A stretch of 27,333 bases of DNA from Candidatus Hydrogenedens sp. (GTDB lineage Bacteria; Hydrogenedentota; Hydrogenedentia; Hydrogenedentales; Hydrogenedentaceae): contig JBMFRC010000030.1 in NCBI GenBank assembly GCA_049968235.1, positions 1 to 27,333 on the forward strand. The letters are read 5' to 3'. Position numbers and translations under genes: made by a program. A model generated the notes under the pieces. The model searched no databases. It saw only the letters and a program-made list of their open reading frames with translations, and had not been told where the DNA came from. This document shows positions 3,288 to 27,333 of the stretch, one piece after another; within the stretch, counting starts at the first letter, position 1, and every line of letters starts with the position of its first letter.

Positions 3288-6200
3288 TTGAACTCCGCTT
3301 TTGTGGAATTAGGCTGGCGTAAGCGGAATATTGCAAATACACGCAATCGTGTCGCATATATCCATAATTTCGGTTTGCAACAATATAGACACGGTCATCC
3401 GGGATTCTGGGATAAGGGACCTGTCTATCGTCCGGCGTTTGCAAGTAATATAAGTCCCATCCCTGGCGACCCAACTGATTATATCCCCTATCCCGGTGGA
3501 TTTATCGAATATCCTACTCCGCGAGTAGGGCTTGCAAATAATGGTAATGACCCGATACATTTAAATACAACAGGCTATCGTGATTTATGCGGGTATGCAT
3601 TATATCAATTTTTTGCAAATTGGTTAATTGACACGACACCACCGTTTGTGGCATCTATCACACGCAATCCATCTGCTCCTAATCCTACCAATACGCAAAC
3701 ATTAGAATTTATAGTCACATTTACAGAACCAGTAACAAATGTAACTCTGGATGATTTTGTCATTGAGGGGATAGGTTTCAGTGGTGCATCTTTGGTATCT
3801 ATTTCGGGTTCAGGAACGACACGAACAGTAACAATAAACCGAGGCACAGGACAGGGAGACATTAGTATAGACCTAATCGACCGTGATACGATTTACGACA
3901 TGAACTGGCGTGTGCTTGGCAATGCTCTGGGACAAAACTTTGGGGCAGGTAACGCGAATTACACCGCTGGCGAATACTATACAATCGATACAACCTCACC
4001 AACTGTTCTCATTACAGCGGATACGCCTCAACCTAATGAAACCACTTATGCAACATTCACTACAACTTTCAGTGAACCGGTTACAGGATTTACCGCAAGC
4101 GATATACAATTAACTGTGTCGGGTTCAGGTATTGCACAAGTTACAAATTTTTCGGGTAGTGGAGCAACGTACAATTTTGGCATCACCGTGGCAAGGAGTT
4201 CCGACATCTTCGTAACAGTTAATATTCCAAACGGTATTTGCTCGGATATAGCAGGAAATCCCAATCAAGGTTACACCTATGATAATTACTATTTTAAACT
4301 CCCGCCTTTTGCTTCCACAGATGTTTATCTAAGTAATGGTACGCTTGGTGATTTGACAGTAAATTCAGGAGATATACTTGTTTTCTATACTGGCACCAAC
4401 ACACTACCACCTTATTACCAAATTAACTCCGGAATGCAAATACAGGGACAGTTATTAGACATAGGGAGTGGCAACAAAGTGGGCAAGTTTAACTTTCAGT
4501 CAATTTATGTTCCATCAGGGGTGAGCATTACTGTTTCAGGAACAAATCCATTAGTAATAGCAGGAACGAAAGATATTACATGGAATTCGCCTGTGGATGT
4601 ATCCGGTGCCGTTCCTGGACGGGCAGGAGGTGGTGTAGGTGGTAGTAGTGGTTCTGGCGGGAATGGTGGTCCCGGTGGTGTAGGCGGAACTTCAGGCGGT
4701 TCTGGTGCTTTATCTGCTCCTGGTGGTGCTGGAGGTGATTATAGCAATGGTGGTCAAGGACAACCCGGGACATCCTATTCTGGATATGCAGGTGGTGCAG
4801 GTGGGCAAGGCTCTGTCGGTCAGAATGGCTCCGCAGGTGCCAGTGGAACAGTTGGTTTCAACGGTATGGGTAGTCCAGGCTCAGGAGGAGGTGGTGGCTC
4901 TGGTGGTCCAGCATCGCCTGTGTGGGGTAATGGCGGTTCAGCCGGGTCTGGTGGTCCATCGGGCGGAGGCGGAGGAGGTAAGACCTGCGAAAATGGAAAT
5001 CCAGGTGGAAATGATGGTGATGGCTACAATGGCGGAAACGCAAATCCCGGTGCTCCTGGAAATAACGGTCAAAACGGTTCACCTGGCGGAAATGCCTCAT
5101 TTATAGCGCCGGCGAATGACTTGACCTTAGCAGGTGGTGCAGGAGGAGGCGGAGGAGGCGGAGGAGGCGGAGGTAGTGGTGGTCAAGGTGGTGGAAAAGG
5201 AGGAGGTGGTGGTAGTGGTGGTAGTGGAGGCGGTGGAGGTGGAGCGTGGAATGCTCCATGTCATAATTGTTCAGGTTCCGCAATAGATGGTTTTGGTGGT
5301 GTTGGCGGAATTGGCGGAGCAGGTGGTGCCGGCGGAAACGGTGGAAATGGTGGTACTGCCCCTAAGGCAAGAGATGGTGGAAAGGGTGGTGATAGATGCG
5401 GTGTCATAGTCCTATCTGCTCGTGGACTTGTTGTATTTGGAGGACAAATCAACATTTCTGCAAGTGCACCTGGTAGCGGTGGAACGACAGTGCCTGCGAA
5501 CCCTGGCTCAGCAGGTGTCGACCCCGGCAACAACTGGGGTTGGGGAAGCGGTGGAGGTAATGGCACACAAGGATACTGGGCTAACTCAATAGGATGGTGT
5601 TTCCCTGTTGAGTCCAATGGCGGAAATGGCGGTTCCGGTGGTCGCGGCGGTAGGGGTGGAATAGGGGGTACTGGAGGGCAGAGTAGAACATCCGGTGCCG
5701 GTGGTATCGGCGGATTGGGAACACCAGGTATGTTTAAACTACACGGCAGTATAATTCTTACCTCTGGCGGATTGGTTGTATGCAATAACCATACCACGGA
5801 TGCAAGTTCGAATATTATCGGCAGATTTACACACATCTCAAATATGCGTTCACCGACCTACCCTGCTTTCTCTGATGATATCCTCATTGGTGCTACGCAG
5901 AATGATGCCGTGCTGAAAGCACCTGCCCCTTACAATTTACTAATATCTGCTCCACTAATTCCACAATTGGTTGGCGGACCGGCTACCGGCGGTTTCACTG
6001 AATCCGATTTCTGGAATAAATCGCAAGTGAATACACCGGGAATAGACCTGGTAGAGAAGGTGGAACTTTCCGGTTCCAATTCGCCATTCAAGGATTTTAA
6101 ACAAATATTCCTCGTTAATAACGGTGGTGTAGATGCAAAAGAAGTAGAACTTTATGTAGATGGTTCACCGACATACTATATCGGTATCATTCCGAGTGGT

Positions 6201-8558
6201 GCTATCTGGACAACGACAGTGCCTGAAGGAATTAATGTATCTTTCAAGGTTGGTATGGATATTACGCTAACTCCTTTGAAAACGGAAACATATCAAGGTG
6301 CTTCTTTCTCCATTAATGCTAATGTCATCGGTGGAACAGGAACAAAATCATATCGCTGGCTAAGAAACGGACAGGAAGTAGCAGTGACTCCAGCACCGTT
6401 ACTAACGATTAACCCTGTGAACCTGTCCGATACTGGCACATATACCATAGAGGTAACTGACAGCACACATACAGAAACAGGTGATAATAGCGTTAGTGTA
6501 TTAGTTTATCTACCTGTTGCTATCAATACTCAGCCTATTGGCGGAAACTACACGACCGGGCAAACATTATTACTCACAGTTTCTGCGACTGGCGGTAAAG
6601 GCTCTCTAAATTATGATTGGCGGAAAGGCGGTGTATCGTTAGGTACTCCGAATCTGCCATATTTAGATTTATCGCCAGCGGGTCCGGAGGATAACGGAAG
6701 TTACGATGTAGTCGTTTCGGATGAACTTGGGTCTATTCCATATGGACAGGTTATCTCCAGTTCCGCATTGATTACAGTTAACGACCCATTAGCGGTTTAT
6801 GGACCTGCAGGACAGACTACAGTATATGAGAATACACCGAATGTGCAGTTAACTGTTCTGGCAAGTGGTGGTGTATCACCGTATAGATACGAGTGGTTTA
6901 AAGACCTTAATGAAAATGGTATCTTAGACGAAGGCGAGGTATTAAGCAATACCCCGCCATTCTCTGGTGTGGATACAGACACCCTGACTGTATCATCTCC
7001 AACTATAAGCAATAGCGGAGTATATCGTTGTATTGTTACAGATGATAACGGCAATGGTACAAGTGTGGTATCGCAAGCCGGAGTATTGAATGTTGTTCCT
7101 CATCTGACTATCGCAGTTCAACCACAAAATGTAGTTCGGAATCCAGGACAGAGTGTTCAGTTTACTGTAGAAATCATCGGTGGTATCCCTCCGTTGACAT
7201 ACACATGGCGTCGAGCCAGCATCGGCAATCTACCTCCTGAACAACAGCCCGGTGGAAATGTTTTGACACTGAACAATCTGAACGAGACAGATGAAGATTT
7301 CTACGATGTAATTATTCAAGACAGCGGGACTGATAGTATTACATCCGATGCAGTATTTTTGATGATAGTGGATAACCCACTTACGATTACTTCTCAGCCA
7401 ACAGACTTACGGGCGTATGTCGGAGAGTATCCATCACATACTCTTCAGGTAGTTGCAAATGGTGGATATGGAACTATCCACTACCTATGGATGAAGGATA
7501 ATCAGCCTGCCCCCGGTGTGAATAACCAATCCATCTACTTTATTACACCATTGACCACGAATGTCTCAGGGACTTATTACTGTGTGGTTAGCGATGATGT
7601 CCCAGAGAATAATATCAACTCGGATTCTGTAGAAGTATTAATTGCGGAGCATATGCAGTTTGTAAATGACCTACCTTCGGTGAAATACGCACCATATAAT
7701 GAACCGTTGACTTTAACTGTCTTGCTATCGGGCGGTTTAGGGAATCTTAATTACGAATGGTGGTTTAATAATGGCAATGGTTATACCCAGATAAGTGGCA
7801 ATTCTCCAACGATTAATTTGGGGAATCCCACAAGTATCAATACAGGGTTGTATTATGTACGTGTATTTGATGAGCGCGAAGAACTGCAATCCATAGTTTG
7901 TCAAATCTATGTAGGTGAAGATTTAGCGATTACACAACAACCTCAGGAAGTATTGATTTATATAGATGAAGGTCCTAATTTCCAGTTGGATGTTCAGACC
8001 ACCGATGGCTTTGGAAATAAACAATACACATGGTATCGTAATAATGAACTGGCTCCTGGAATAAATAATGAAGCAGTTTATGTATCCCCTCAAATAGAAC
8101 CATTATTGTCAGGTAATTATTGGGTTGAAGTTCGGGATGAAAAAGATACAGTACGGTCTGAACAAGCACGAGTTGCTATTAGTTCTCATGCAGAATTTCT
8201 CCGCCAACCTACAGGTGGAACAGTAGGAGAAGGAAATACCTGGCGATTTGAGGTAGAAGTAACGGGTGGGTTAATTGAATTGCATTATCAATGGAAATTC
8301 CAGCCGTTAGGTAAAGTGAAAGAAATTCAAAATATTGGCACAGATTCACCTATATTGGAAATCGCGGATATTAGTTCGAATGATGCAGGTTTATATTGGG
8401 TTGAAGTTACAGATGCTCGTGAGACAATTTCCTCAAATCAAGTTATATTAAATGTAGAAAAAGATATACCCTCGCATAATTTGTTAGGTATTACAATCAT
8501 AATTATTTCTATCATATCGATATTTTTCTATATTAAACAGTCCAAAGCAAAAGTATAA
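3288..8558 (+). CDS. Large intact ORF (1756 codons) for the remainder of giant surface protein paralog B: tail of the SGNH domain (DPIHLN His block), 2 Ig-like domains, a beta-solenoid-like segment, a ~380-aa Gly-rich GGxGGx tract, 8 tandem ~90-aa Ig (I-set-like) repeats and a C-terminal TM anchor
   Basis: ORF track 3288..8558. It begins at TTG one nucleotide after the TGA of the upstream fragment. Motifs read directly: DTTPPFVASI and DTTSPTVLI Ig-like openings. Gly-rich GGVGGSSGSGGNGGPGG...GGAGGAGGNGGNGG. Eight repeats each carry a GGxGxxxYxW motif (YRWLRNG, YDWRKGG, YEWFKD, YTWRRAS, YLWMKDN, YEWWFNN, YTWYRNN, YQWKFQP at about 270-nt spacing) and an SGxYxCxVxD-type motif (DTGTYTIEVTD, NSGVYRCIVTDD, VSGTYYCVVSDD, DAGLYWVEVTDA ...). 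The C-terminus is NLLGITIIIISIISIFFYIKQSKAKV. Whether it is expressed is uncertain because the upstream part is disrupted. Confidence 0.7.
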   Translation: MNSAFVELGWRKRNIANTRNRVAYIHNFGLQQYRHGHPGFWDKGPVYRPAFASNISPIPGDPTDYIPYPGGFIEYPTPRVGLANNGNDPIHLNTTGYRDLCGYALYQFFANWLIDTTPPFVASITRNPSAPNPTNTQTLEFIVTFTEPVTNVTLDDFVIEGIGFSGASLVSISGSGTTRTVTINRGTGQGDISIDLIDRDTIYDMNWRVLGNALGQNFGAGNANYTAGEYYTIDTTSPTVLITADTPQPNETTYATFTTTFSEPVTGFTASDIQLTVSGSGIAQVTNFSGSGATYNFGITVARSSDIFVTVNIPNGICSDIAGNPNQGYTYDNYYFKLPPFASTDVYLSNGTLGDLTVNSGDILVFYTGTNTLPPYYQINSGMQIQGQLLDIGSGNKVGKFNFQSIYVPSGVSITVSGTNPLVIAGTKDITWNSPVDVSGAVPGRAGGGVGGSSGSGGNGGPGGVGGTSGGSGALSAPGGAGGDYSNGGQGQPGTSYSGYAGGAGGQGSVGQNGSAGASGTVGFNGMGSPGSGGGGGSGGPASPVWGNGGSAGSGGPSGGGGGGKTCENGNPGGNDGDGYNGGNANPGAPGNNGQNGSPGGNASFIAPANDLTLAGGAGGGGGGGGGGGSGGQGGGKGGGGGSGGSGGGGGGAWNAPCHNCSGSAIDGFGGVGGIGGAGGAGGNGGNGGTAPKARDGGKGGDRCGVIVLSARGLVVFGGQINISASAPGSGGTTVPANPGSAGVDPGNNWGWGSGGGNGTQGYWANSIGWCFPVESNGGNGGSGGRGGRGGIGGTGGQSRTSGAGGIGGLGTPGMFKLHGSIILTSGGLVVCNNHTTDASSNIIGRFTHISNMRSPTYPAFSDDILIGATQNDAVLKAPAPYNLLISAPLIPQLVGGPATGGFTESDFWNKSQVNTPGIDLVEKVELSGSNSPFKDFKQIFLVNNGGVDAKEVELYVDGSPTYYIGIIPSGAIWTTTVPEGINVSFKVGMDITLTPLKTETYQGASFSINANVIGGTGTKSYRWLRNGQEVAVTPAPLLTINPVNLSDTGTYTIEVTDSTHTETGDNSVSVLVYLPVAINTQPIGGNYTTGQTLLLTVSATGGKGSLNYDWRKGGVSLGTPNLPYLDLSPAGPEDNGSYDVVVSDELGSIPYGQVISSSALITVNDPLAVYGPAGQTTVYENTPNVQLTVLASGGVSPYRYEWFKDLNENGILDEGEVLSNTPPFSGVDTDTLTVSSPTISNSGVYRCIVTDDNGNGTSVVSQAGVLNVVPHLTIAVQPQNVVRNPGQSVQFTVEIIGGIPPLTYTWRRASIGNLPPEQQPGGNVLTLNNLNETDEDFYDVIIQDSGTDSITSDAVFLMIVDNPLTITSQPTDLRAYVGEYPSHTLQVVANGGYGTIHYLWMKDNQPAPGVNNQSIYFITPLTTNVSGTYYCVVSDDVPENNINSDSVEVLIAEHMQFVNDLPSVKYAPYNEPLTLTVLLSGGLGNLNYEWWFNNGNGYTQISGNSPTINLGNPTSINTGLYYVRVFDEREELQSIVCQIYVGEDLAITQQPQEVLIYIDEGPNFQLDVQTTDGFGNKQYTWYRNNELAPGINNEAVYVSPQIEPLLSGNYWVEVRDEKDTVRSEQARVAISSHAEFLRQPTGGTVGEGNTWRFEVEVTGGLIELHYQWKFQPLGKVKEIQNIGTDSPILEIADISSNDAGLYWVEVTDARETISSNQVILNVEKDIPSHNLLGITIIIISIISIFFYIKQSKAKV
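5142..5173 (+). repeat. Perfect 9-bp tandem repeat (GGAGGAGGC) x3 plus a partial copy inside the Gly-rich coding tract
   Basis: Read directly: ggaggaggc ggaggaggc ggaggaggc ggagg. It encodes GGG units in frame and is a plausible slipped-strand length-variation site. Confidence 0.7.
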
Positions 8559-23934: not shown

Positions 23935-26900
23935 TTATTTTCTGTCATTTAGTTTCTTAACTAAATGGGCAGGACCTTTCAGTTGGATTTTATTCACAAA
24001 ATCATCAAAGTTACAGACCCAATATTTCTTTTGTGGTTCAAGTACGGAAGCCATTCCGCCCTGAGCAGGAATAAGCAATAATTTTACATTAATAGTAAAT
24101 CCATCGAATGAAAAATCTTTGCCCTTTTTTTGTCCATCCTCTTCGGTTTCAAATATCCTTGAATATCCATCAATTTTTCTGTATCCATCTGTATGTTCTG
24201 TACCTTTAGGATCAACGAACAGAATAAAATACTGATTTCCTTTCTTTAACCAAAATATAAAGTCGGGTTTGAATTTTTCAATACGATTTGTTTTAGGTTG
24301 ATAATAAGGTATATAAACTTCATCTAATGTTTCATCAATTTTTGAAAAATACCACCAATCAAAATTTTTAAAAAGATTATTTTCTTGTTGCAAATAATTC
24401 TCTAATTCATTTATAAAATCCACTTCACTTTTGTGCTTAATAATATGCTGAATAAAGTCAGCTCTTTCAGCATCTGATAAAGCAATAGGTAAATAGTAAT
24501 GATTTGTAAGATATTTTATTTTTATTTTTTCTTGAGGGCTGTAAGCGGTTTCTGCTTCTTTTAATAAATTAGTTGAAACATCTTCTATGTTCTTTGTGTA
24601 CTCATCAATATTAATTTCTTTTTTTTCAAGTTTTTCTTTCAGTTGTTGTTTTATTAACTCTTTATCTTTTGCTTTCTTTACTTTTTCTATCTTTTCTCTC
24701 AAGTGATTTAATTTATCTATTGATACATTAATCCTCTTAAAGTGTATGATTTCTTCTTCTAATTTTTTGAAGGTATTAAATTCTTTTGCTTTGCTTGCAA
24801 AGTGTTTAAATATTCGTCCAAGCAAAAATTCTGGGTTATTAACTACTTTTTCTTCGTTATTTATTAAAAAGTAGTTATCTTTTTTAACATTAAATGCTTC
24901 TTTTAATTTTTGTAATACTTTAATATTGCAATCATATTTTACCAAGCAGATTTTATCACCTAAATAATTAAAGTAAGCCCTTGTTAATTCATAATCATTG
25001 GGATGAATAGAAAATTTAACCACATCTTGTTCTTCCACAATAATATTATTAGATTCTCTGTAAACTGGTATTAAAAGTAATTTATCTTTTACATCGGGGT
25101 TTATCTCAAATAAATCACCAAGTAATGCTTCTGGTTTTTCTTGCTTTAATGTTTCTATAACTTCTTTTAAGTTTTCCGATTTTGTTCCATAGACAAATAA
25201 CGATTCCAAAGGTTCTATACTATCTTTAATTGCATCAAATATCTGAGCATCCAGTTCTTTGTTGTTGTAAAGAAATACGGCTCTTTTTCGTTTATCTTTT
25301 ATTGGCTCAATTCGTACACCACGTCCTACAGCTTGTAATACAAATTTTCTTGCATCTGTACCTTTTCCAATATTGATAAACAAAATAATATTGGGTCTGT
25401 TGCTATCCCAACCTTCGTAGAAGGAGCGGGACCCCATTAAAATATTGATTTCCTGACTATTATTGATGTTTTTAAAGATACTTTCATTCTCAAATCTTTC
25501 TACGATTTCATATCCCGATAATTTATTTTTAATCCATTCTGAAATATCTCCGATTTTCATTAGTGCAAATGGCTTATCTGTGGTTTTTAATTTAAAAATC
25601 AATTCCTGTTTATTACTGGGAATTTTAAGAATTTCTATTTTTCCAAAAGTGTCAGAATTAAAAACATACTTTAGAATATCAGAATAGTTTATTTGTTCAA
25701 TGATATCCAAAAAATTTTGATTTATTCTAGCTTCTTCAAAAATAAATTTTGCATTTTCACTTGAAAGTTCATTTTTGAGTTCTTCTATTGATGCTTTAAG
25801 TAAATCATCGCTCAATTGCTCCCCTAATGCAATCTTTTCAATTTCTCTGAAAAAGAGTTCCAAGTCGGAATCATCAGTATTAACAGAATTCACAAGGGTT
25901 ATAAGTAAAGGCCTATGGTATAAATTTTCAGATACGTTTTTAATACCTTCATAGAGTTTATTTATTGCAGTTTGAAGGACAAATATTTTTAGAATGATTT
26001 TTTGTTTTTCAATCCCAATATGATTATCTTTTCTTTCTAATACACTTATATTCTTCTGAGATATGTAAATATGCTTTCCATAGCCATCTTCTATAAATCG
26101 GGCAAGATTAAAGTTAAAAACACAGGTTGCAAAATCTCTTGGGTCTGTAAAGGTAGCAGAAAAATTGAACAGAAATCCATTTCGGCTGAGTATGTTGTAA
26201 AAGGTTTGTCTTTTGCTGTCTTCTCTGTCGCCTTTGTGTGCTTCGTCCAACAAAATATACCAGTTGCCATTAGTGTCATAGTTTTTAAAATCAATGATTT
26301 TATCTTTTTGTTCATCAGATATCAAATCGCTTCGGTAGTAATAAATATCTATACTATTACCAAATTTAAGAGTTGGGTTTTGTTTACTAGAAGAATAATC
26401 TTTTAGGTCAATTAGATTTAAGTCAATATCATTATAAAGATTAAACTCTTCGATATGTTTTTTAAATTGTTCTATTAAATCTTCTCTGTAAGTTAAAAAT
26501 AAAATATCTTTTTTAGGAATTTTATTATTTTTCATAAGATAACCAAGCAATTCAATAAGTTTAACAATAACTAATGTTTTGCCACTACCTGTTGCCATCC
26601 AAAAAGACATACGATTAATGAAATGCTCAAAAGATATTTTGTTGTTTTCTATTGGATAATATTTATCGTATTCTAACAGGTATTTTATAGTTTTACTTTC
26701 TTTTTCGGTGTCAAACCCCAGTTCTTCGGTAAGTCCGTTGTTTAAAAATCTTTGGTAGAATTTGTTTTTTTCTGAGGTGTCTTCATTAAAATAAAGATAT
26801 AGTGCTTTTAAAAAGTTTTTCAAGGCATTTTGTTGGTAATCAAATAGTTTTTTATTACTGGAAAATTTTTCTAAATCTATGCCCAGCCATTCTTGTGGAA

Positions 26901-26952
26901 GGTTATTAAGATCATAGTTTTCTACAATGTTCTGAAGATACAATTTACTCAT
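23935..26952 (-). CDS. SF2 (DEAH-type) helicase fused to a C-terminal PD-(D/E)xK nuclease; architecture of a Type III restriction enzyme Res subunit or a related defense helicase-nuclease
   Basis: ORF track, 1005 aa. Motif Q/Ia LFDYQQNALKN. Motif I MATGSGKT. Motif II ILLDEAHKG. Motif III FSAT. Motif VI LQAVGRGVR. C-terminal KPDFIFWLKKGNQYFILFVDPKG is a PD...D-x-K nuclease motif. A K/E-rich coiled-coil-like segment lies between the two modules. The gene is far AT-richer than its neighbours and its codon usage is AAA/AAT/ATT-dominated. A GGGAG Shine-Dalgarno-like sequence precedes the ATG at 26950-26952. Confidence 0.75.
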   Translation of the reverse strand: MSKLYLQNIVENYDLNNLPQEWLGIDLEKFSSNKKLFDYQQNALKNFLKALYLYFNEDTSEKNKFYQRFLNNGLTEELGFDTEKESKTIKYLLEYDKYYPIENNKISFEHFINRMSFWMATGSGKTLVIVKLIELLGYLMKNNKIPKKDILFLTYREDLIEQFKKHIEEFNLYNDIDLNLIDLKDYSSSKQNPTLKFGNSIDIYYYRSDLISDEQKDKIIDFKNYDTNGNWYILLDEAHKGDREDSKRQTFYNILSRNGFLFNFSATFTDPRDFATCVFNFNLARFIEDGYGKHIYISQKNISVLERKDNHIGIEKQKIILKIFVLQTAINKLYEGIKNVSENLYHRPLLITLVNSVNTDDSDLELFFREIEKIALGEQLSDDLLKASIEELKNELSSENAKFIFEEARINQNFLDIIEQINYSDILKYVFNSDTFGKIEILKIPSNKQELIFKLKTTDKPFALMKIGDISEWIKNKLSGYEIVERFENESIFKNINNSQEINILMGSRSFYEGWDSNRPNIILFINIGKGTDARKFVLQAVGRGVRIEPIKDKRKRAVFLYNNKELDAQIFDAIKDSIEPLESLFVYGTKSENLKEVIETLKQEKPEALLGDLFEINPDVKDKLLLIPVYRESNNIIVEEQDVVKFSIHPNDYELTRAYFNYLGDKICLVKYDCNIKVLQKLKEAFNVKKDNYFLINNEEKVVNNPEFLLGRIFKHFASKAKEFNTFKKLEEEIIHFKRINVSIDKLNHLREKIEKVKKAKDKELIKQQLKEKLEKKEINIDEYTKNIEDVSTNLLKEAETAYSPQEKIKIKYLTNHYYLPIALSDAERADFIQHIIKHKSEVDFINELENYLQQENNLFKNFDWWYFSKIDETLDEVYIPYYQPKTNRIEKFKPDFIFWLKKGNQYFILFVDPKGTEHTDGYRKIDGYSRIFETEEDGQKKGKDFSFDGFTINVKLLLIPAQGGMASVLEPQKKYWVCNFDDFVNKIQLKGPAHLVKKLNDRK

Positions 26953-26956
26953 AGTT

Positions 26957-27333
26957 TCACTCCCACCAGATTAATGGTTTTATCAATCGATAATCCAAAT
27001 CTTTTGTATCTACTTTTGTTCCATCTTCAAACTGCACAACTACCCCGTCAACCTTTGGTTGACACCCCTTCAAAGAAGGGGAATTATTCCCCTCTTTTAG
27101 AGGGGCGTCAGAAGGACTGTGCGTAATTTTTTTTATCCATTTCCCAGTAAGATTAGACAAGGTTTCAGCAATGTCTATATTTGGATAGAGTTTATCCAAA
27201 TCGACCTTTACTTTGTTATTTTCATAATCAATCTCTAAAGCTTTGAGCATCTTTTCGTCTTTTAAGAAAACATATTGTTCGTAAGGACTTTTGTCTCCTG
27301 CAATAAATATATCGTGATTTTCATAAACCGTAT
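26957..27333 (-). CDS. 3' part of an upstream gene (N-terminus beyond the window end) whose TGA (26957-26959) sits 4 nt before the helicase ATG; product unknown, possibly the partner subunit (e.g. a Mod-like methyltransferase C-terminus)
   Basis: The reverse-strand frame is open from the window edge: ...TVYENHDIFIAGDKSPYEQYVFLKDEKMLKALEIDYENNKVKVDLDKLYPNIDIAETLSNLTGKWIKKITHSPSDAPLKEGNNSPSLKGCQPKVDGVVVQFEDGTKVDTKDLDYRLIKPLIWWE. The ORF track lists only the part from the internal Met (26957..27250). Confidence 0.55.
   Translation of the reverse strand, partial: TVYENHDIFIAGDKSPYEQYVFLKDEKMLKALEIDYENNKVKVDLDKLYPNIDIAETLSNLTGKWIKKITHSPSDAPLKEGNNSPSLKGCQPKVDGVVVQFEDGTKVDTKDLDYRLIKPLIWWE
27047..27105. 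repeat. Cluster of four interlocking perfect palindromes built on G4/C4 tracts (7-bp stems; neighbouring hairpins share arms)
   Basis: Read directly on the + strand. gtcaacc-ttt-ggttgac at 27047-27063. ccccttc-aaa-gaagggg at 27065-27081. ggggaat-t-attcccc at 27078-27092. cccctct-ttt-agagggg at 27089-27105. This is a GC-rich islet in an otherwise very AT-rich segment, inside the 3' region of the partial upstream ORF. Confidence 0.8.

Follow-up and report, generated by a model that had tools for sequence, protein, structure and literature searches.

A convergent doublet of palindromic repeats in a mod gene of Candidatus Hydrogenedens, and the association of its repeat family with DUF559 genes

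Near one end of contig JBMFRC010000030.1 from Candidatus Hydrogenedens sp. (GenBank assembly GCA_049968235.1), four short interlocking palindromes lie within the 3′ part of mod, a gene for a Type III-like DNA methyltransferase, immediately upstream of res, which encodes the helicase-nuclease subunit. What are such structures doing inside a coding sequence? The entire 27,333-bp contig of this metagenome-assembled genome (MAG), called the window below, was analysed. A first-pass annotation of the window, made from its letters alone, had proposed either a small inserted element resembling repetitive extragenic palindromes (REPs) or MITEs (miniature inverted-repeat transposable elements), or an attenuator-like site controlling read-through into the helicase gene. 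Comparison with other genomes indicates that the feature is almost certainly an inserted doublet of a repeat family, found in many phyla, and this family is associated with one group of genes encoding DUF559, a Vsr-like domain of the PD-(D/E)xK type.

The palindromic insert in mod

Alignment of mod with its relatives revealed that 88 nt of the window stand in place of 16 nt, which lengthens the gene by 72 nt (24 codons) and keeps the reading frame. The insert encodes the peptide T-HSPSDAPLKEGNNSPSLKGCQPKVDGVV in the C-terminal region of Mod, and the additional codons appear in the homologue alignment as THSPSDAPLKEGNNSPSLKGCQPKVDGVV. Hundreds of homologues of the 124-residue Mod fragment are found in very different phyla at 60-89% identity, and the majority of those aligned read ...GKWIKKIS-DGEVEFEDG..., without the 24 codons. 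The allele at locus L128 (89% amino acid identity) has the same mod 3′ end, from which the 88-nt insert is missing; L131 and L001 are likewise empty at this site, whereas L130 and L003 are filled. In L130, from a Desulfurella MAG, the doublet is orthologous and carries the same variant box, AACTACCCCG; the insertion is thus older than the divergence of the window and L130 alleles. In other relatives of mod this site holds between one and three related units (three tandem 42-nt units in L003), and two other sites in the gene hold additional ones. The suggestion of a small REP- or MITE-like palindromic insertion is therefore supported, since close homologues do without the segment and related copies occur at 120 or more loci, the opposite of a peptide encoded elsewhere by non-palindromic DNA with no further copies. 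A second, different GC-rich palindromic in-frame insert, TCCCCCCTTATTAAGGGGGGA, which encodes SPLIKGG, is also present in this mod family, away from the site of the doublet (L001, 305-350, and likewise P0051, P0072 and P0078; P0003 and P0008 have it at another site).

The repeat unit was defined by comparing the inserts of L001-L003 and the copies on viral contigs with 156 genome copies. It measures about 45 nt and consists of a 5′ box, hairpin A, hairpin B and a terminal AAT, with the full consensus AACCACCCCG / (A)ACCACCCCG, a variable hairpin A, CACCCCTCC-NNN-GGAGGGG (hairpin B) and AAT. Both copies in the window were recognised by a covariance model, R1, built from 47 copies of other genomes only, so that the window copies were never in its training set. 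Copy 2 gives a full-length match on the plus strand (27038-27086; 42.6 bits, E 2e-10), and copy 1 a match on the minus strand to model positions 10-41 (27117-27086; 29.7 bits, E 8.6e-7); no further copy was found elsewhere in the window, either by pattern or by R1 with filters off. In copy 2, box AACTACCCCG (27038-27047) leads into hairpin A, a single A, hairpin B and AAT (27082-27084). Copy 1, read on the minus strand, has AAT at 27088-27086, hairpin B as CCCCTCT aaa AGAGGGG (27105-27089), a G, then GTCCTTCTGAC (27117-27107), which makes only a weak hairpin A, and lastly ACGCACA, a degenerate form of the 5′ box that extends to about 27125, where the alignment with the empty allele L128 sets the outer boundary.

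Table 1. Features of the window discussed in the text
Feature	Position	Strand	Sequence or basis
Entire insert relative to the empty allele, 88 nt	27038-27125	-	DNA alignment with L128, L131, L001, L130 and L003
Element copy 2, complete, antisense to mod	27038-27084	+	Covariance model R1
Element copy 1, partly decayed, same sense as mod	27086-27125	-	R1 and comparison with L128
Hairpin 1 (hairpin A of copy 2)	27047-27063		GTCAACC ttt GGTTGAC, perfect 7-bp palindrome
Hairpin 2 (hairpin B of copy 2)	27065-27081		CCCCTTC aaa GAAGGGG, perfect 7-bp palindrome
Hairpin 3 (junction palindrome)	27078-27092	.	GGGGAAT t ATTCCCC, perfect 7-bp palindrome; AAT/ATT ends of the two convergent copies, 7 nt between the hairpin B stems
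Hairpin 4 (hairpin B of copy 1)	27089-27105		CCCCTCT ttt AGAGGGG, perfect 7-bp palindrome
mod 3′ end (124 codons and stop), Type III-like methyltransferase, host gene of the insert	26957-27333	-	Runs off the contig end
res, 1005-aa ResIII/DEAD helicase-nuclease subunit	23935-26952	-	Pfam ResIII, E 4.4e-15

The four 7-bp palindromes of the first-pass annotation are all where it had placed them, both by direct reading and with a repeat finder (Table 1), and the feature reaches beyond them on either side, to 27038 with the 5′ box and to about 27125. It is the head-to-head arrangement of the two copies that makes the palindromes appear interlocked. The hairpins are indeed mutually exclusive, as had been stated, a property inherent in any head-to-head doublet and not a designed switch. 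Hairpin 3 as first described has a 1-nt loop; its sterically feasible form spans 27077-27093, with 7 bp and a 3-nt loop. A further, imperfect palindrome had been missed, with 25-nt arms (27060-27084 and 27086-27110) that are 80% complementary around a centre at 27085. In a crude clustering test, 3 of 200 Markov simulations matched the observed number of 7-bp hairpins within 60 nt, a weaker test of chance than the R1 matches given above, and the predicted DNA fold has an energy of -21.1 kcal/mol (z -4.0). We also would like to point out a separate perfect 9-bp inverted repeat inside mod (ATTTGGATA n5 TATCCAAAT, 27179-27201), which is unrelated to the element.

Direct reading of the element consensus finds no stop codon in any of the six reading frames, and the peptides that it specifies are rich in Pro, Gly, Ser and Glu. 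Copies that keep the frame can thus persist within genes as loop or linker insertions.

The repeat family and its DUF559 genes

A degenerate 22-nt pattern, run over the genome collection, located the element at no fewer than 120 loci in many phyla, compared with an estimated 35 or so chance matches over the entire collection. Among the matches listed are Chryseobacterium, Flavobacterium, Pedobacter, Bergeyella, Bacteroidales, cyanobacteria, Verrucomicrobia, Patescibacteria, Clostridia, Gammaproteobacteria, Cloacimonadales, Planctomycetes, Acidobacteria and others. Several genomes have multiple loci (Chryseobacterium rhizoplanae, C. takakiae and Porisulfidus), and six copies occur in L102. Viral contigs also carry the element, within open reading frames (ORFs) and between genes. 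On one of them (IMGVR_UViG_3300028920_001368), in-frame copies occur in an open frame that exceeds 2,275 aa and is cut by the end of the contig (L004, 5297-11581), and further copies lie exactly between genes, after stop codons and before ribosome-binding sites (L006, 10477-10522 and 12173-12219).

The 5′ box is present in 134 of the 156 genome copies. Hairpin A, which takes 91 distinct sequences, forms at least 4 bp in 90% of copies, compared with 28% of shuffles, and it covaries: in the 47-sequence alignment, 31 cells have changed on both sides, whereas shuffles average 4.8 and none of 500 reaches 31. At the variable, loop-adjacent pair of hairpin B (position 7), 138 copies have C-G and 13 have T-A, and there is a mismatch in five. 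Conservation extends upstream to (A)AC and downstream to AAT(ttt). Where copies are adjacent in other genomes, 21 of 36 pairs are convergent (AAT...ATT, with gaps of 16-90 nt), seven divergent and eight tandem. About one third of the copies lie in open frames of at least 150 aa, 23 in sense and 35 in antisense orientation; this occurrence in genes in either orientation points to a DNA-level element and not to a strand-specific RNA. The remaining two thirds or so, outside long open frames, are probably intergenic. Solo copies in open frames show a preference for restriction-modification (R-M) proteins (roughly 10 of 29), and housekeeping genes are hosts as well.

With Rfam 15, the window had no match at the gathering threshold and seven element-rich loci yielded no family for the element at E values up to 1; the sole real match in these loci was Flavo-1, elsewhere in L036. 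Literature searches with strings of the element sequence returned primer sequences only. CRISPR-like repeats, integron attC sites, dif/Xer sites, small ribozymes and riboswitches were considered and rejected, as their defining motifs are missing and there are no Rfam matches.

What genes accompany the element? When the ORFs of at least 100 aa from 113 genome loci were clustered, starting from the element, the largest recurrent family, present at 12 loci, proved to contain DUF559 (E 3e-30); the match of the associated gene to PF04480 scores 104.7 bits, against a cut-off of 20.6. The other recurrent neighbours were ABC ATPases, HsdM, RhuM and housekeeping genes, and no transposase was found among the 14 commonest clusters, which were annotated. 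A profile search recovered 11 DUF559 genes in 11 loci (10 from genomes and the viral L007). Upstream of each of these genes, at a distance of 49-229 nt, lies a copy in the opposite orientation, and at least seven have a same-sense copy 7-85 nt downstream. The conserved C-terminus of the protein, ..NHPAL.., is itself encoded by the 5′ box of this downstream copy (AAC CAC CCC GCC CTG).

The same arrangement was met from the protein side. More than 3,156 homologues of the DUF559 protein exist at 58-77% identity in many phyla. With queries that included the 13-residue element-encoded tail, peptides encoded by the element were detected in 93 homologues among the best 120, where shuffling left a single such case, and in 74 of the 148 best cluster representatives (one after shuffling). 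The order antisense copy - DUF559 - sense copy was seen 19 times, and the reverse order twice. Francisella uliginis, an isolate, has a DUF559 gene inside a Type I R-M operon with five copies around it within 2 kb. The repeat family is thus associated with one DUF559 group.

The unit formed by the gene and its flanking copies is also read through inside larger genes. All 35 long representatives with an internal DUF559 match the DUF559 domain, and their hosts are mostly R-M proteins: Type ISP C-terminal domain (11), HsdS (seven), Eco57I (four), MmeI (three) and N6_N4 methylase (two), where the counts can overlap within one protein. Such genes are favoured by the DUF559 unit as hosts; in P0241, for example, a Type III-like Mod contains the entire unit without a break in the frame. 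In Type ISP C-terminal domains, the site just before ..IDILDYIYAVLHSPTYREKY.. holds either a doublet or a whole DUF559 unit (L038, 3935-5713; L019, 2508-4175; P0125), and in L038 the doublet has been tandemly duplicated together with approximately 100 aa of host sequence. Some stand-alone DUF559 proteins of about 145 aa (P0212 and P0225) are named 'DNA methylase' in public records, an annotation probably carried over from methyltransferase genes with an inserted unit. In earlier work, DUF559 domain-containing proteins were found 14-fold enriched among predicted targets of programmed inversion (PMC9881135), and the inverted repeats flanking DUF559 may explain this enrichment. No openly searchable paper that links DUF559 to these hairpins was found, subscription literature being outside the scope of the search.

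Nearest described elements and a candidate mobilising enzyme

The nearest described class is that of the CGTC-tagged REPs (Di Nocera, De Gregorio and Rocco 2013, PMC3733652), which includes RPE-4 and RPE-6 of Rickettsia and dRS3 of Neisseria, is characterised by an unpaired CGTC (or TGTC/CCTC) tag at one end of the stem-loop, a CCA tail and a predominance of head-to-head dimers, with some copies inside genes, and members of which "apparently lack a dedicated transposase". Similarly, among the 134 copies with a box, CGTC follows the 5′ box in 75 (56%) and CGCC in 36, a CCA-type tail is found in 72 (54%), head-to-head dimers predominate, copies occur in frame within genes, and no RAYT-type (REP-associated tyrosine) transposase is associated. 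Differently from those REPs, the CGTC hairpin is here only half of a unit, always followed by the second hairpin CCCCTCC-NNN-GGAGGGG-AAT and preceded by an ACCACCC box, and neither the box nor the second hairpin is described in the text of PMC3733652. CGTC-tagged REPs have stems of 8-9 bp whose first two positions are A/T, loops of 4-5 nt and a 3-nt CCA tail, whereas the stems of the present family are of 4-11 bp and mostly GC-rich, with loops mostly of 3-4 nt. Its hairpin A segments range from 9 to 39 nt (commonest 11, 17 and 25 nt) and fall outside the CGTC-REP definition of stem and loop, into which only copies of the Chryseobacterium type (CGTC AAAAATTC ttt GAATTTTT GCCA) fit. In copy 2 of the window, with its 7-bp stem, 3-nt loop and tail ACA, CGTC is present but its GTC is paired with GAC and hence is not an unpaired tag. 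Two other differences are the conservation of the same sequence across phyla and the associated DUF559 gene.

In functional terms the closest analogy would be that of REPs, and of the REP doublets called REPINs, with their RAYT genes. Both systems have hairpin repeats that are often inverted doublets, with a structure that is kept while the stem sequence varies, and a presumed enzyme gene flanked by inverted copies. However, the present consensus has no GTAG, no Y1 (HUH) transposase lies near the copies, the associated gene being of the PD-(D/E)xK type, and a REP family is as a rule confined to one species or genus whereas this one spans phyla. The element does not fit the MITE type, as there is no evident duplicated flank and a single copy has no terminal inverted repeats, which only the DUF559 unit or the doublet possesses.

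Rickettsia palindromic elements (RPE-1), yeast mitochondrial GC clusters and PARCELs are GC-rich or palindromic mobile sequences that stay open in frame within genes. Like the element described here, they are tolerated as peptide inserts and form GC islets in AT-rich genes, but their sequences and host ranges differ, and RPE-1 and PARCELs are at least 100 nt long. To our knowledge, none of the three has been linked to DUF559. As to abundance, Neisseria dRS3 occurs about once per 3 kb, a density at which finding one beside a DUF559 gene would say little.

How, then, might the doublet have come to lie in mod? The stretch in the window is a fixed, in-frame insertion of two convergent, REPIN-like copies, and we propose that Mod accommodates it as a Pro/Gly-rich loop of its C-terminal region. 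The likely autonomous form of the family would be a DUF559 gene flanked by inverted copies, and solo copies and doublets would be its non-autonomous relatives or footprints, as REPs and REPINs are to RAYT genes. DUF559 may recognise the hairpins, as cruciform or single-stranded DNA, and cut at or near them, and this cutting may drive copying of the element. The window doublet would have arrived with a horizontally acquired mod-res block and would now have no dedicated function. In a weaker variant, DUF559 would only home into, or ride between, repeats moved by something else. The part given to DUF559 as mobilising enzyme is an inference, which we consider about evenly balanced; the combined proposal, an inserted doublet of a cross-phylum family with DUF559 as its mobilising enzyme, is the account that we moderately favour. 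Whether the two-hairpin element and its DUF559 gene make up a previously undescribed selfish element, similar to REPIN/RAYT but with a Vsr-like nuclease replacing the Y1 transposase, cross-phylum, open in six frames and colonising R-M genes, is a more tentative suggestion, to which we would give somewhat less than even weight.

Several observations count against this proposal. The window contains only the doublet and no DUF559 gene, and the part of the source genome covered here, this one contig, has two copies. Neither a target-site duplication nor a clear target motif was seen around the copies, and the plasmid collection gave no match to the consensus (blastn) or to DUF559 (tblastn). The scan pattern fixes most of hairpin B and the AAT, so that the near-invariance of both (CCCCTCC-NNN-GGAGGGG for hairpin B) is partly by construction, and the tail carried by the DUF559 queries bears in a similar way on the homologue counts given above. 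In L135 (1925-2423), from a Clostridiales MAG, the DUF559 gene is in the reverse order, with the sense copy upstream and the antisense copy downstream, and its protein is without the element-encoded tail. A PDB sequence search with DUF559 found only 3HRL, an uncharacterised protein. Finally, the DUF559 gene may just be carried along, or may be a homing gene for which the repeats are no more than a target.

The last of these points leads to the strongest rival, in which an independent REP-like family is moved by some other host or mobile enzyme and DUF559 is a homing-type gene that lands on repeats or doublets, or a hitch-hiker. Vsr-like nucleases do include a proven homing endonuclease, I-Bth0305I (PMC3239194), with which DUF559 and Vsr have been grouped (PMC3424549), and CGTC-tagged REPs have been reported without a dedicated transposase (PMC3733652). 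Moreover, most copies are far from any DUF559 gene (11 genes for about 170 copies), and the Type ISP site of L019, L038 and P0125 is occupied by either a DUF559 unit or a doublet. The likeness to the Vsr-like (EDxHD) homing or 'fractured gene' endonucleases (PMC3239194, PMC2677866) lies in the Vsr-related fold, in the invasion of conserved host genes and in hairpins upstream of the endonuclease ORF. Those enzymes, however, reside in group I introns, in inteins or between split-intein halves, whereas the unit described here leaves the host frame open and has inverted hairpin repeats at its borders, and its DUF559 protein has the uncharacterised 3HRL as its only sequence match. In the two host ORFs scanned in full for intein or intron domains (L038 and P0241), Pfam reported only DUF559 and the host R-M domains, and Rfam detected no intron family in the element-rich loci. 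Furthermore, in most homologues the 3′ end of the DUF559 frame is built from the 5′ box of the element, which suggests that the two have evolved together as a unit; among the neighbours of the copies, no other candidate enzyme is recurrent; and conservation across phyla is unusually high for DUF559 as well as for the element. We regard an independent repeat family, with DUF559 as a homing gene or hitch-hiker, as rather unlikely.

Regulatory and protein-level readings, and the setting of mod

The regulatory reading of the first-pass annotation fares less well. In this scenario, alternative hairpins in the mod mRNA would serve for attenuation, for pausing or as an obstacle to processing, and would in this way determine the Mod:Res ratio or hold back the synthesis of Res. 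The position is suggestive, as the insert lies 86 nt upstream of the res ATG, itself only 4 nt past the mod stop, and the minus-strand RNA of the insert region has a strong predicted fold (-42 kcal/mol, z -3.9) with a diverse ensemble of competing structures. Hairpins of the REP type can also stabilise upstream mRNA, as do the malE-malF REPs of Escherichia coli. Yet a control of helicase read-through is not supported, in view of the absence of the insert from the 89%-identical allele with the same mod 3′ end and from most homologues, of a copy number and site that differ between lineages, and of the occurrence of the element in unrelated genes and intergenic DNA without strand preference. Moreover, insert-bearing homologues are not always followed by res, and some homologues have no res downstream at all. 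As the annotation had correctly observed, no U-tract follows the hairpins on the transcribed (minus) strand, and a terminator scan reported only a weak 5-bp junction stem; together with the absence from close alleles, this led us to reject the intrinsic terminator/attenuator class. A regulatory RNA is thus improbable, although the insert may have a side effect on the mod-res mRNA.

Selection at the protein level would make the segment a functional linker or loop of Mod and the palindromes a by-product of Pro, Gly and Glu codons. The insert does keep the frame, its peptide has many Pro, Gly and Ser residues, and it is placed between conserved C-terminal blocks of Mod where several lineages have extra residues. 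However, the same nucleotides, including boxes of non-coding appearance, recur in all frames, in both orientations and between genes, the pairing of hairpin A is kept through two-sided changes that protein selection does not predict, and most homologues function without the segment, which leaves this explanation with very little probability. A chimeric palindrome produced by assembly or sequencing can be dismissed as negligible: although the feature is less than 300 nt from the contig end and contigs of this gene family break inside mod, the insert keeps the reading frame, the orthologous doublet of L130 comes from an independent assembly of another organism, and related inserts exist in many independent assemblies and isolate genomes.

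The identification of mod rests on its homologues, which contain PF01555 and of which many are named adenine-specific DNA methylase Mod or site-specific DNA methyltransferase; a Pfam scan of the 124-residue fragment itself gave no match. The res-mod block (23935-27333) has a GC content of 27-29%, compared with 33-53% in the rest of the window, and abuts yidC-jag-mnmE, so that by its composition and neighbours it looks like, and is consistent with, a horizontally acquired island. Elsewhere in the window, positions 1-1000 (GC 44%) have a strong negative GC skew of -0.34, and a 1756-aa protein with many Ig-like domains (3288-8558) includes a stretch that reaches 53% GC.

Nearly all of the 120 best homologues of the Mod C-terminus are short or partial ORFs (at most 212 aa) at contig ends, as in the window (27333), L001 (2-496), L002 (27-521), L003 (129-662) and L130 (1-288); assemblies from many studies break within this mod family, upstream of its conserved 3′ part. 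Next to the conserved 3′ end, variable cargo takes the place of res in L001, L002, L130 and L131. In L001 (496-6625) it comprises a methyltransferase-SNase gene, an MjaI-family (RE_MjaI) gene and a Fic gene, which precede ResIII; in L002 (523-2159), an M78 peptidase and DUF4411; and in L130 (292-2859), AAA_14 and RhuM/Fic. In L131 (3606-8036), a 195-aa mod remnant follows genes for an N6_N4 methylase and a HinfI-family endonuclease and precedes transposase genes. In L003, a seven-T run (about 22-32) in the FxGxG (AdoMet-binding) motif of mod leads to an in-frame stop codon, which could be either a sequencing error (contig coverage 3.9x) or a homopolymer phase switch.

For the window, these comparisons remove a tempting regulatory story, the palindromes being a passenger insertion in an acquired mod-res block. 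The single site is ordinary, one more intragenic palindromic insert, and the family behind it is of more interest: a family of the REP-like kind, in a new variant with a testable candidate enzyme, in which a single short sequence has been kept across Bacteroidota, Cyanobacteria, Clostridia, Proteobacteria and phages and is tolerated in proteins in either orientation. In practical terms, the repeats give rise to spurious extensions of ORFs and to wrong annotations such as 'DNA methylase', probably contribute to the predicted 'programmed inversions' at DUF559 loci, and may contribute to contig breaks in R-M genes. Two questions become testable, the role of the DUF559 proteins and the identity of what moves REP families without a RAYT. 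If the selfish element proposed here is real, it would provide both a function for a large DUF559 group and the 'missing enzyme' of CGTC-type palindromic repeats.

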